Shown piece by piece: positions 21,929 through 39,845 of a stretch of 48,833 nt of DNA (its first letter is position 1; the number at the start of each line of letters is the position of its first letter). Source of the DNA: a virus (taxonomy: Duplodnaviria; Caudoviricetes); IMG/VR virus record IMGVR_UViG_3300049298_000007, positions 1 to 48,833 of that record. One strand, 5' to 3'. Below the pieces are notes generated by a model. That model saw only the letters and a list, made by a program, of their open reading frames with translations, had not been told where the DNA came from and searched no databases. The translations under genes were made by a program, and so were the position numbers.

Positions 21929-22291
21929 TCAGGGAGTGTCCGGCCTGCCCTCGGTCCAGGTCGGCGCACCGGCCGCCACGACCTCCACGGGTTCGCCCTC
22001 GCCCAGCGCCGTCCGGCGTGCCAGCGCCGGACCAGCCACCAGCTCGCGCCCCTTGGTGATGCCGCCCTCTACCTCACGGGGCGGCTCCTCCCGGACGGCC
22101 ACGAGGGGGTTCGGTGTCACCTGAGACTTGGTGATGAAACCCCAGGTGACCATCGCACCGGAGTAGACCAGCAGCGCCCAGGCCAGAACGACCGGCGGCA
22201 GGAGCCCGGCGATCGTGGTGCTTCCCAGGATCGCGCCGACCCCGGCCAGTACACCGGTCATGATCATGACCGGCTGTGGTTTGTTGCTCAT
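21929..22291 (-). CDS. Holin-like membrane protein
   Basis: Two TM segments followed by SQVTP motif; directly after the endolysins. Confidence 0.7.
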   Translation of the reverse strand: MSNKPQPVMIMTGVLAGVGAILGSTTIAGLLPPVVLAWALLVYSGAMVTWGFITKSQVTPNPLVAVREEPPREVEGGITKGRELVAGPALARRTALGEGEPVEVVAAGAPTWTEGRPDTP

Positions 22292-22302
22292 GGCAACTCC
22301 TC

Positions 22303-22845
22303 TCATCGGGCGCAGTCTACGGGCCCGGCCGGTTGCCCGGTCAGTGTCTCCAGGGCGTGCCGGAACACCATGCAGCGGTCGTTGTCGTTCGTCCCGGCCG
22401 CGTCACGCGGGTACCCGATGGCCCGATTGATGCGGCCCATCTTGAGCGCGTCGGCGTAGGTGTTGCAGTCCGGCCGGGCCACCGTCCAGTACCAGACCGC
22501 GATACGTGCGGAGTTCTCCAAGCTGCGCGCCCATTCCGGATTCGTGACCAGATCCACGCCCAGATAGTTGCCTGCGGCCCGGTAGTTGTCCTCGCCCGTC
22601 AGCTGGATGAACCCCCGGCCCGTGTAGACACGGTCGCCCGCCTGCTTCACGTTGTACTCACACCAGGATTCGAACACCAGCGTTGTCAGGAACGCGGCGA
22701 TCCGCTGCGGTGTCTCGCACACCCCGCCCGCTTCCATTGCGTCGAGCAACGACCCCCAGCCCGCGACGACCTGAGGCAGGCCGCCGTTACGCGGCTTGCC
22801 CACGATTTTGCCGCTGCCTGATGTGGACGGGTAACCGGGGAACAT
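22303..22845 (-). CDS. GH19 lysozyme/chitinase-like endolysin domain (probably reached by -1 frameshift)
   Basis: RIAAFL....FES, YTGRGFIQLTG..NY, DLV.NPE, AVWYW. Confidence 0.88.
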   Translation of the reverse strand: MFPGYPSTSGSGKIVGKPRNGGLPQVVAGWGSLLDAMEAGGVCETPQRIAAFLTTLVFESWCEYNVKQAGDRVYTGRGFIQLTGEDNYRAAGNYLGVDLVTNPEWARSLENSARIAVWYWTVARPDCNTYADALKMGRINRAIGYPRDAAGTNDNDRCMVFRHALETLTGQPAGPVDCAR

Positions 22846-22865
22846 CCGGTACAGGTCGTCAGGCG

Positions 22866-23747
22866 TCAGGCTTTTGGGGCGATGGTCGCTTCCAGTGCCG
22901 CCGCGAGCCGGTTGATCGCGTCCGTGTTCGCCTGCATCTTGACGCCCAGCGCGTCGAGCTTGCCCGCGACAACCTCATCGGTTGCCCCGGCCACCGTCTG
23001 CACGATGTTCATGAACCCGGCGCGCATGTCGTCAAGCGCCGCGTCGCCGGTGCCCTGTTCGTCGGAGAAGAACCGACGCCAGTAGTTGGCGTTCCCCGTC
23101 TCGGTACCGGCCGCCATCGCCTGTTCGATCTGATCCAGTGTTGCCATGTCGAACCACTCCAGTGCATCATCGGGTCCGGGGTCAGGATTGCCCCCGGCAA
23201 CGATATCCGCGACCTCGGCGCGGACCATCGTCATGAACGTTGCCCACGGAAAGTATTCCCCGGGGTCCCAGTGGGACGACTGACCGAATGCCCGGGATAC
23301 GTCCCAGTGCCCGCAGATGCCCTTCTGGCCAGCGCGGACCTGAGCCACGGTCAGTTTCACTACAGGGATGTTGTAGGCAAGGCACAGCTCAGCGGTCAGC
23401 CGCGCCGTGCGCTGCATCATCTTGACGTGTGACGCTAGTTCCCAGTGCCCCTGGCCCCGGCTGCTCAGTGAACAGCACATCTCGATACCGATCGAGTGCA
23501 TGTTGGGTGGGGCGTGCCAGCACACAACCGAGTCGTACGCCGACTGGATCGTCAGGTTCGCGTCGGTGATGTAGTGCGCCGACCCTTTGGCCGCCGCGCT
23601 GCGGAAGTATTCGGCCGTGCCGGTCGAACCCTTGCCGTCGGCACCGGCTGTGCAGTGGATCACCAGCCGGGTTAGCGGCTTGTTGCCGTTGCCGGAACTC
23701 TTCGACACCGGCCCGTAGTAGGGCGGTGACGGTGGCGGGTATGCCAT
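22866..23747 (-). CDS. Endolysin, N-acetylmuramoyl-L-alanine amidase (Amidase_2)
   Basis: LVIHCT, SAHY, WHA..N..SIGIE, GH.D...S.H.DPG. Confidence 0.93.
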   Translation of the reverse strand: MAYPPPSPPYYGPVSKSSGNGNKPLTRLVIHCTAGADGKGSTGTAEYFRSAAAKGSAHYITDANLTIQSAYDSVVCWHAPPNMHSIGIEMCCSLSSRGQGHWELASHVKMMQRTARLTAELCLAYNIPVVKLTVAQVRAGQKGICGHWDVSRAFGQSSHWDPGEYFPWATFMTMVRAEVADIVAGGNPDPGPDDALEWFDMATLDQIEQAMAAGTETGNANYWRRFFSDEQGTGDAALDDMRAGFMNIVQTVAGATDEVVAGKLDALGVKMQANTDAINRLAAALEATIAPKA

Positions 23748-24104
23748 TTACTCGTCCTCCTCCAGCAGGGGTGGCGCGGGTGGGACGTGCACGCCCGGCA
23801 CCTTGTTGACCTGTGCAACGAGCTGATCATCCCACCGCATGTGGACACGTACGCGGCTGCGCATGTTCACCAGGACGCCCTCCAGGCTCGTGACGCGCCG
23901 CCGTAGCTCCACGATATCCATGCGGGCCGCCGTCAGGTCGGTGCGCTGGTCGGCCGCAAGCTGCGTGTACAGCCCGGCGGCCGTGAGCTGGTCGGTTCGC
24001 TTCTGTGATTCCTTCGCGCCCTGGCGGGTCACCCATGCGGCGATCGCCGCCGCTGCAATAGCGCCAGCGGCGGCGATGATTGCCGCGACGTTACCCGAGT
24101 CCAT
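23748..24104 (-). CDS. Membrane-anchored coiled-coil lysis-cassette protein
   Basis: N-terminal TM, coiled coil, PPAPP tail. Confidence 0.65.
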   Translation of the reverse strand: MDSGNVAAIIAAAGAIAAAAIAAWVTRQGAKESQKRTDQLTAAGLYTQLAADQRTDLTAARMDIVELRRRVTSLEGVLVNMRSRVRVHMRWDDQLVAQVNKVPGVHVPPAPPLLEEDE

Positions 24105-24555
24105 TTGTCCTCCCTGGTCTGACCGGCGGCAGCCGGTCAAGGCCAACCGCGCAACGATCCACCATCGCCAGCACAGCCAGCCAGACGAGAACACCGAGCA
24201 GAATGCCCCGGTACCGTTCCTGGTCGTGCCCGATGTTGAACACATCCATGATGCCTGCGGCAACATACGTGACGAATCGCGCAGTCGGGCCGACCATCAG
24301 CAGCGCCCAGACGTTGTGATCGTCGGTGCGCATCATCGGCGTAAGCAGCGTCCACGCCATCGCGTAGATGCCAGGCATGATCCAGAACAGGGACCGGACC
24401 CACAGCGGAATGATTGAATCAGGCAACGGAACCGTACGCGGGGCGGTCACGGTCCCCACGCCGATCAGGGCCCAGATAAGCCCGAGGATGAACAGCATCA
24501 CACCCCGGTTGCCGACGTAGTAGCTGGCCCACTTCAGAATGCGGCGTGGCATCAC
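24091..24555 (-). CDS. Four-TM membrane protein
   Basis: Four hydrophobic segments. Confidence 0.7.
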   Translation of the reverse strand: MMPRRILKWASYYVGNRGVMLFILGLIWALIGVGTVTAPRTVPLPDSIIPLWVRSLFWIMPGIYAMAWTLLTPMMRTDDHNVWALLMVGPTARFVTYVAAGIMDVFNIGHDQERYRGILLGVLVWLAVLAMVDRCAVGLDRLPPVRPGRTNGLG

Positions 24556-32344: not shown

Positions 32345-32373
32345 CGCGCACCTCCCTTACATCGTTGCCCTGA

Positions 32374-32757
32374 TCAACGGCCAGGCAAGCCCAGCAGCCC
32401 GCGCATCTCCTCTAGTTTGCTCTGGGCAACTTCCTTTCCGGACAGGTACGCGTCGAATCTCTCCTGGAGCGTGCCCCAGTCCTCCACCGCGCCGCCCTGG
32501 ATCGCCGTTGTGATACTTGCCGTGTGCCACTGCCGCTCTAGCAGGTCGAGCATCAGCACGTATGTCAGGTCGAGCAGGTCGCGCAGACTCAGTGACTTAC
32601 TCCGGCTTCGGCGGCCAGGAGGTAGAACTCCGCCAGGTCGGCGCGGCCCTCGTTCTCCAGCTCCGCGATGGTTCGGGTCAGCTTGGACGAGCCGTCCTGA
32701 GACTTCGTTGCGGTGGGCAATTGACCATTCGATGAGTCGTGAGACTCTTTGGTAGGG
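32374..32757 (-). CDS. Tail assembly chaperone, -1 frameshift extension (gpT part)
   Basis: -1 frame stays open from inside gpG to 32374. Confidence 0.65.
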   Translation of the reverse strand, partial: PYQRVSRLIEWSIAHRNEVSGRLVQADPNHRGAGERGPRRPGGVLPPGRRSRSKSLSLRDLLDLTYVLMLDLLERQWHTASITTAIQGGAVEDWGTLQERFDAYLSGKEVAQSKLEEMRGLLGLPGR

Positions 32758-38693: not shown

Positions 38694-39845
38694 TCAGTAT
38701 GAGTCGTTGATCAGAAAATCGGTCACGTTGAACCGCCACGGCGCACCGTTGGTGTCCACCGTCTCGACGCCGTAGTCAACCTGCCAGGTCGTCGCCGCGC
38801 CACGAATCCAGTTGCGGGCCGCGAGGTCGGCGAAGAACAGCTGCAAAGGCATCGTGCCGAACTTCTGGGCAGGCACGCTGACGTAGGTGAAGATTCCGCC
38901 CTGGCTGGAGATGCCGCCGGACTTCCACACCTGATACGTCTTGCCCCCGATCGTTGCATCCGGCAATCGTGTGCCCGCCGGTGTCTGCCCGTGGTTCTCC
39001 GTCCAGATCATCAGCTCGTTCTGGAACCCGTCACCGATCCAGATATCGAATGCGGCATTCCAGGTCATCCCAGCCACATCGGCCGCGTTGTGCGCGAACC
39101 GCGCCGACTCGATACCGGACAGGGCAACGTCGTTGTAGTCGGTGTGCACGTTCGGATACGCCTCGACTGCCCGGTCTGAGTGCTCGGGAACGTTCACGTC
39201 CACATACCAGTTGTCGTGGCCGCAGGCAACGATCGTGTGAGTGCCGCCGTAGTTGTCGTTCCAGTTGTTGTTGTGGACGAAATACTCGTCCTGGCTCGCG
39301 CCGGTGCCGGTGAAGAACGAGCTACCGGCCCCCTCGGCAATGGTTCGTCCCGTTCCGCCTGCCGATGTGGGCGCGCACGTCTTGACCGGCGATGCATCTG
39401 GAACGGTTGGGGTCGGGGTGGGCGTGGCGCTGGTGGGGGGCGTACTGGATGTTGGCGGGGTGCTGGACGACGGAGGGGTGGTCGGTGTTGCCTCCGGCAA
39501 CGTCATCACGGCGTTGTAGCGGATGACCGTACCGGCGGGGAACAGGACCGGTTCGTACCACCAGAACCGCACCCGGAACGTCGTTGCCGTGATGGTGGCC
39601 GGGTCTACCGTGGCCAGCTGCCCGATCAGGGCTGGCTGAACCAGAACGGCCGTCGGCTTCACCCCGAGCCCGTGGGTCACGGTGCAGTATCCCTGCGCGT
39701 CAACGGCGCACTGCCCGGCCCGGCCGACCGACCGATCCATGACCGCCTGCTGGCTGGCCGTGCTCAAGTTGATGCCTGCGGCAATCAGTATGACGGCACA
39801 CAGCGCGGCGGCGGCAGCAAGCCAGCGGTGATCCTTGACGTTCAT
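38694..39845 (-). CDS. Secreted glycoside hydrolase family 12 (endoglucanase-like)
   Basis: Signal/TM segment, Pro/Thr linker, NNNW, AYPN, AAFDIW, ELMIW and GVE catalytic Glu pair. Confidence 0.85.
   Translation of the reverse strand: MNVKDHRWLAAAAALCAVILIAAGINLSTASQQAVMDRSVGRAGQCAVDAQGYCTVTHGLGVKPTAVLVQPALIGQLATVDPATITATTFRVRFWWYEPVLFPAGTVIRYNAVMTLPEATPTTPPSSSTPPTSSTPPTSATPTPTPTVPDASPVKTCAPTSAGGTGRTIAEGAGSSFFTGTGASQDEYFVHNNNWNDNYGGTHTIVACGHDNWYVDVNVPEHSDRAVEAYPNVHTDYNDVALSGIESARFAHNAADVAGMTWNAAFDIWIGDGFQNELMIWTENHGQTPAGTRLPDATIGGKTYQVWKSGGISSQGGIFTYVSVPAQKFGTMPLQLFFADLAARNWIRGAATTWQVDYGVETVDTNGAPWRFNVTDFLINDSY

Follow-up and report, generated by a model that had tools for sequence, protein, structure and literature searches.

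Background

The frameshifts on record in double-stranded DNA phages are mostly those of tail chaperones and virion proteins, and the phage -1 cases treated in PMC5009743 are tail chaperones and capsid and tail proteins. Statements on cited articles refer throughout to the portions of them that were covered, and in that portion of PMC5009743 the word 'endolysin' was not found. The closest described layout is the tail chaperone pair G/GT of lambda and other tailed phages, in which a heptamer lies just before the stop codon of a major short product and a minor product carries a C-terminal extension (PMC5009743). The lysin locus described here is laid out in the same way, but its predicted extension would supply an entire further catalytic domain. 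In Lactobacillus phage A2, in T3 and in Listeria phages A118 and A500, -1 shifts in capsid or tail genes append an Ig-like domain, a modular addition, to a fraction of the subunits (PMC5009743); the heptamer type is shared with the lysin. Those proteins, however, are structural parts of the virion with non-enzymatic extensions, whereas the lysin extension is enzymatic by family.

An earlier note on the DNA studied here had stated that CCCAAAA drives the structural-gene shifts of phage A2. A2 does require two -1 shifts (PMC5009743), and CCCAAAA is named for the head gene of BH1, a relative of A2 (PMC6950654), but in the portions of these articles covered the heptamer was not found named for A2 itself. 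In E. coli, C_CC.A_AA.A and C_CC.U_UU.A belong to 18 motifs that gave more than 0.10% -1 shifting with no stimulator; of the motifs used by IS elements, G_GG.A_AA.A ranks with the more efficient (PMC4066793).

Endolysins that produce two polypeptides from one gene include Lys170, LysIME-EF1, CTP1L, CD27L, LysP7951 and Ms6 LysA, several of them being hetero-oligomers of set stoichiometry (PMC9430671). The number of genes and products is alike in our case, but the described enzymes depend on a second start inside the gene, in frame, and their products have a common C-terminus, whereas the lysin reported here would have a common N-terminus and a frameshifted C-terminal enzyme. The term 'Frameshift' is absent from the main text of PMC9430671 as far as it was covered. 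LysA proteins of actinophages (PMC6116114) combine peptidase, Amidase_2, GH19, GH25 and transglycosylase domains, with the same repertoire and swapping as found here, and Gordonia phage lysins that are split over two genes likewise share this repertoire. These lysins are annotated as in-frame fusions or as two genes, and in the portion covered none was found described as frameshift-joined.

Recoding in a lysin gene had been regarded in the earlier note as an undescribed feature. This held in so far as a literature search, mostly of titles and abstract beginnings, found no description of a frameshift-joined endolysin. On the other hand, the article on PRFect (PMC10885494) counts lysins among the genes with a known frameshift and refers to Shearman 1994; the lysin gene concerned is described in PMC3111421 only as encoding two proteins.

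Results

The amidase gene overlaps a GH19 reading frame at a slippery heptamer

The window, i.e. the whole stretch of DNA that was analysed, is an entire virus record of 48,833 bases with 66% G+C. Its minus strand encodes terminase, portal, capsid, tail and lysis genes. The runs containing the window are soil metagenomes, among which no RNA dataset containing it was found. The features of the lysin locus are collected in Table 1.

Table 1 Coordinates of features at the lysin locus of the window
Feature	Position	Strand	Remarks
Endolysin ORF, zero-frame product ending ...ATIAPKA*	22866..23747	-	293 aa; strong SD, -10.1 kcal/mol
Amidase_2 catalytic domain, residues 23-164	23256..23681	-	PF01510, E 5.5e-17; model pLDDT mostly 83-98
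Predicted coiled-coil tail (residues 204-288), all-helical and heptad-periodic	22884..23138	-	Helices 204-228, 234-253 and 257-288; pLDDT 50-80
Slippery heptamer C_CCA_AAA in zero-frame register	22872..22878	-	Pro-Lys both before and after a -1 slip
Zero-frame stop TGA	22866..22868	-	One codon 3' of the heptamer
GH19-coding part of the -1 frame, counted from the heptamer; no ribosome-binding site	22303..22878	-	189 residues after the shift; PF00182
First helix of GH19 (PDDLYRM)	22843..22863	-	Helix 6-12 in the model; coded almost wholly 5' of ATG 22845
Possible 3' stimulatory hairpin, weakly supported	22816..22864	-	Begins 7 nt past the heptamer; z -2.6 hand-cut, -0.8 at 69 nt
Gene for a hydrophobic protein of 120 aa behind GH19, holin-like as judged from position and composition	21929..22291	-	Own SD, -6.7
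Two small hydrophobic genes before the lysin (24555-24091; 24104-23748)	23748..24555	-	Probable membrane proteins of the lysis cassette

The upstream product scored 62.8 bits against PF01510 (cutoff 26) and is thus an Amidase_2 endolysin. On the minus strand the junction reads ATC GCC CCA AAA GCC TGA, which confirms the ending GCC CCA AAA GCC TGA and the C_CCA_AAA at 22878-22872 reported in the earlier note. The claim that the -1 frame is open from the heptamer into the GH19 ORF was equally borne out: this frame is open from 22974 to a stop at 22303, via PKSLTPDDLYRMFPG, and holds an intact GH19 domain (Pfam Glyco_hydro_19, E 1e-8). By coordinates the predicted fusion has 292 + 189 = 481 aa, in agreement with the proposed lengths of 293 and about 481 aa for the two products. 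The heptamer lies in register within an overlap of two ORFs, the second of them in the -1 frame, which is the layout of a programmed -1 frameshift. GH19 has its own stop in that frame, unlike the second product of a lysin gene with an in-frame internal start, which shares the stop codon of the first. CCCAAAA occurs only once on the minus strand of the window, and at 7,638 codon positions of 20 other window genes no in-register X_XXY_YYZ with Y = A or T was present.

In the structure model of the amidase, the catalytic domain is followed by a loose linker and by a helical tail, modelled with low confidence, that ends just 5' of the shift site. The heptad score of the window tail was 0.77 (shuffle p 0.01), and lysin tails had a mean score of 0.72 vs 0.36 for shuffled sequences, 13 of 19 at p<=0.05. 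As to the flanking genes, 24104-23748 has a weak PHROG membrane-protein match (E 5e-4), and for the 120-aa gene neither a Pfam nor a PHROG match was found.

Two other places on the minus strand of the window are worth recording. At 32372-32603 the -1 frame is open for more than 100 codons after a probable tail chaperone gene (33122-32589), ...RSKSLSLRDLLDLTYVLML..., and reaches the tape measure gene; the layout is G/GT-like, yet the junction GGA GTA AGT CAC TGA lacks a canonical heptamer. Amid the head genes, 38694-39845 codes for 383 aa and includes a GH12-like domain. In database protein P0065, a GH19 domain of the same family as the phage domain is followed in frame by sequence that, by eye, looks GH12-like.

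The heptamer is conserved in divergent GH19 loci

An alignment of 50 GH19 relatives was used to retrieve loci from three collections; single-protein scans of viral contigs gave no usable locus. Among the 98 rows scoring at least 95 bits, window included, 26 had an overlapping upstream ORF with an in-register heptamer at most two codons from its stop. Removal of five duplicates left 21 loci, 20 with C_CCA_AAA and one (L012) with C_CCT_TTA. One further row (L052) repeats the junction of L020, three (L015, L021, L035) stop at contig edges and the other 68 lack a junction of this kind; the four inspected among them (L029, L033, L040, L053) run upstream into other sequence. L112, in which AAAGGGG is followed by GTG behind GGAGG, was judged to have an ordinary start and was left out of the counts. 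When 401 genomes of the order of a Kribbella genome were searched, 81 matched; the best 30 loci comprised 28 in-frame cellular proteins without heptamer and two junctions, both in prophages behind phage tail genes. The heptamer is C_CCA_AAA in L319 and G_GGA_AAA in L321.

Altogether, 23 distinct phage or prophage GH19 loci were obtained, 21 with C_CCA_AAA and one each with C_CCT_TTA and G_GGA_AAA. The heptamer was thus either kept or swapped for a shift-compatible one in divergent homologs, which answers the check on related phages proposed in the earlier note. Identity is 47-89% (median 60%) between the GH19 parts, with a median of 20% for the upstream lysins. Elsewhere in these genes such heptamers were found at 2 of 8,646 other codon positions, and CCA accounts for 13% of Pro and AAA for 12% of Lys codons. 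Three bases of the heptamer changed together, in either half and with tRNA re-pairing kept, as one would expect if slippage were under selection.

This pattern also bears on the idea that RNA polymerase, slipping on the C/A run, adds a base to some transcripts and so gives the fusion. The window does offer a C4A4 run, but polymerase slippage usually needs longer runs, the runs here are short (only C3 in 6 of the 21 loci), the tRNA re-pairing register is present in 23/23 loci, and the C_CCT_TTA and G_GGA_AAA variants preserve codon re-pairing, not a homopolymer. We consider polymerase slippage very unlikely.

Still less credible is an in-frame amidase-GH19 gene that was broken by an assembly error or by recent loss of a single base, leaving GH19 as a relic. 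In-frame multi-domain GH19 lysins are known in mycobacteriophages (PMC6116114). However, three contigs from two studies other than the possible source (run X2) cross the junction without gap or indel, which answers at contig level the indel check proposed in the earlier note (run X4 leaves the junction uncovered). The same offset recurs in all 23 of the divergent loci. An in-frame GH19 was seen in none of 119 amidase homologs, and none of 62 longer GH19 matches is listed with Amidase_2. The strain differences were silent in 5/5 cases; a variant at 22867 (one contig, depth 5.7) turns TGA into TAA and CTG into CTA, silent in both frames. A broken gene is therefore largely refuted by the sequences compared.

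The 19 full-length frameshifted GH19s tested formed one clade (100/92) among 44 in-frame GH19s, which points to one inherited cassette rather than to independent origins. The nearest cellular GH19 relatives come from Actinomycetota; they are secreted GH19 proteins, often in tandem pairs, encoded by genomes of 8-9 Mb such as G001. No cultured phage with the junction was found by protein searches against 50,697 records, the best identities being below 60% and partial, and in the three cyanophages inspected among those matches GH19 is inside one long annotated gene.

The GH19 domain has no conserved start of its own

The anti-SD duplex energy was +0.3 kcal/mol at ATG 22845 and +1.9 kcal/mol at CTG 22869, as compared with -5.3 to -14.6 kcal/mol at nine other gene starts, in line with the earlier observation that ATG 22845 has no SD. 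Over the family, the mean energies at the two candidate starts were -0.5 and -0.7 vs -5.8 kcal/mol for the following gene at its best start candidate. Three of the 21 loci have no ATG within the first 20 codons, and the internal Met is retained in 18. The amidase stop is TGA in 17, TAG in 3 and TAA in 1 of the loci, and the codon overlapping it is CTG in 14, GTG in 3, CTA in 2 and GTA in 2. An independent conserved start for the downstream ORF was thus absent, though GTGA is present in three loci.

The -1 frame modelled from the heptamer onwards gave a mean pLDDT of 95.8, with helix 6-12 placed ahead of and including the Met. The model aligned with 9ms7, a putative phage endolysin, from residue 3 (Z 17.6, rmsd 2.1, 155 aligned) and with the SPN1S endolysin 4ok7 from residue 2 (Z 15.3). 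In cellular homologs the first-helix segment lies in frame, as DVTLADVQAMFG. A start at ATG 22845 would thus cost the fold its first helix.

Pfam score above cutoff, fold, conserved Glu and the GRGxIQLTG motif all assign the domain to GH19. In the alignment, E70, which we take to be the catalytic acid, and G87-T94 are invariant or nearly so. A putative phage endolysin and chitinases tied as neighbours in the fold search. From its lysis-cassette context and from PHROG endolysin matches, the domain may be a muramidase that acts on peptidoglycan instead of chitin.

These data can be set against a separate GH19 protein made, like split two-gene lysins, by termination and reinitiation, either at the internal ATG or at the codon overlapping the stop (CTG-A, GTG-A). 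In 17/21 loci this overlapping codon is CTG or GTG, with GTGA in three, stop-start overlaps are frequent in the window genome, and a GH19 begun at CTG would be complete. About 50 relatives stand in databases as separate proteins of 160-195 aa, but such entries are the output of gene callers. The overlapping codon is CTA or GTA in 4/21 loci and CTA also in the close strain variant, neither CTG 22869 nor ATG 22845 has an SD, and the ATG start deletes helix 6-12. Moreover, reinitiation leaves unexplained why the rare CCA-AAA was kept or swapped for CCT-TTA or GGA-AAA. Given the three GTGA loci and how often CTG occurs, reinitiation keeps a small probability, but as a whole we regard it as unlikely.

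Stimulatory elements

The earlier note had proposed that a stem GCCTGA/TCAGGC downstream of the heptamer could stimulate shifting. Such a stem exists, and is better read as a second GCCTGA copy (22864-22859) pairing with TCAGGC (22821-22816), but the structure is not conserved across the family. Its z score was -2.6 in hand-cut pieces of 50-56 nt but -0.8 in a 69-nt piece, and the 70-nt z of the window was -0.4. For the 3' region of the 21 loci the mean z was -1.0 vs dinucleotide shuffles, and under a synonymous null it was -1.21+-0.27 vs -0.79+-0.18 in in-frame controls. No conserved hairpin or covarying stem was found across the family (consensus energy of 13 sequences -0.6 kcal/mol). On the 5' side, an SD-like run of -6 kcal/mol or lower was present in 10/21 loci vs 24% of background windows, the window itself reaching -4.4; this signal may derive from Leu-Glu-Ala codons. 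Neither the 3' stem nor the 5' run is conserved as a defined element, and as stimulators both are unproven.

The junction is found behind different lysins

Of 18 upstream enzymes scanned, nine matched Amidase_2 (six above cutoff) and one Peptidase_M15_4. A further group had no Pfam enzyme match and appears peptidase-like from its His/Asp motif. An N-terminal lysin family (L004, L008, L017, L019, L020 and L038; alignment A3; 78 viral loci) has invariant SxGTH...D and HxH, and searches for Pfam, PHROG or solved-structure sequence matches to it found none.

In protein sequence, a C-terminal PK followed by 0-3 residues was seen in 27 of the 50 closest amidases, compared with 1 of 123 GH19 matches, and three amidases ending in P-L-x fit the C_CCT_TTA variant, again at the protein level only. 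When complete lysin homologs were fetched by their N-terminal enzyme, 6 of 92 carried the heptamer within the last 15 codons; the downstream -1 ORFs were examined in these six, and all had at least 109 codons. Four of the six are query loci and two are new, namely L218 (SLT_3) and L250 (GH25 behind G_GGA_AAA). In L250 a peptidase-like lysin is joined to GH25 via G_GGA_AAA nine codons before the stop (2684-2716), with no ATG, GTG or TTG ahead of the start of the GH25 match.

A scan of DNA for the pattern gave 63 matches, and in three of these (L197, L201, L175) a further amidase precedes an SLT_3 or SLT-like domain. Like L218, they end in PKA and continue with such a domain in the -1 frame; since the search pattern contains the heptamer, these three were excluded as evidence of conservation. 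A similar signal thus precedes SLT-like or GH25 domains in five other phage lysins. Among non-lysin pairs, the CCCCAAAAGCCTGAC string was found at tail-chaperone G/T junctions in 5 of the 10 scanned (L154, L155, L161, L169, L174), so that chaperone junctions of metagenomic phages carry a string identical to that of the lysin junction. Some close amidase homologs (P0181, P0188, P0195, P0192, P0204) have a C-terminal domain of 240 aa in frame, in some cases annotated PF03372. Judged from these sequences, the heptamer together with the glycosidase behaves as a cassette set behind different N-terminal enzymes.

Discussion

We consider it highly probable that a programmed -1 frameshift joins the amidase to GH19; a fusion protein, perhaps at the fixed ratio proposed in the earlier note, is predicted. 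The case rests on the conservation and covariation of the heptamer in divergent phages, the lack of a usable conserved start for GH19, the need of the GH19 fold for residues preceding the Met, and contigs from other studies that are free of indels. Most ribosomes would terminate and release the 293-aa amidase as the major product, and a minority would slip back by one base and make the 481-aa amidase-GH19 fusion as a minor product. Slippage would occur in tandem, tRNA-Pro moving from CCA to CCC and tRNA-Lys from AAA to AAA, perhaps aided by a local 3' hairpin or an upstream SD-like run. In this major-short, minor-long design the lysin parallels lambda G/GT, with the design apparently applied to lysis.

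The helical heptad tail would be common to both products and could mediate their co-assembly; the oligomer would bear several amidase heads, with the glycan-cutting domain in sub-stoichiometric amount. Putative oligomerisation through this tail is the account we favour of why the ratio of the two products might matter. More broadly, we give an even chance to the view that phages of soil actinobacteria share a portable cassette of slippery heptamer plus glycosidase (GH19, SLT-like or GH25) placed behind amidases or peptidases with coiled-coil tails, in which the frameshift sets the number of glycan-cutting domains per oligomeric lysin; this would be a third general class of phage frameshifts, in lysis, hidden by two-gene annotation.

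Prophage copies of the junction occur in genomes of bacteria from the same order as Kribbella. If the endolysin frameshift is real, many stand-alone 'putative chitinase' entries that start at MFPG would be mis-started fragments, and the frameshift would be a second route to two-product lysins, beside internal starts. With a conserved endolysin frameshift, if true, phage recoding would extend to a further class of genes, and selection on the amount of glycosidase relative to amidase would be suggested.
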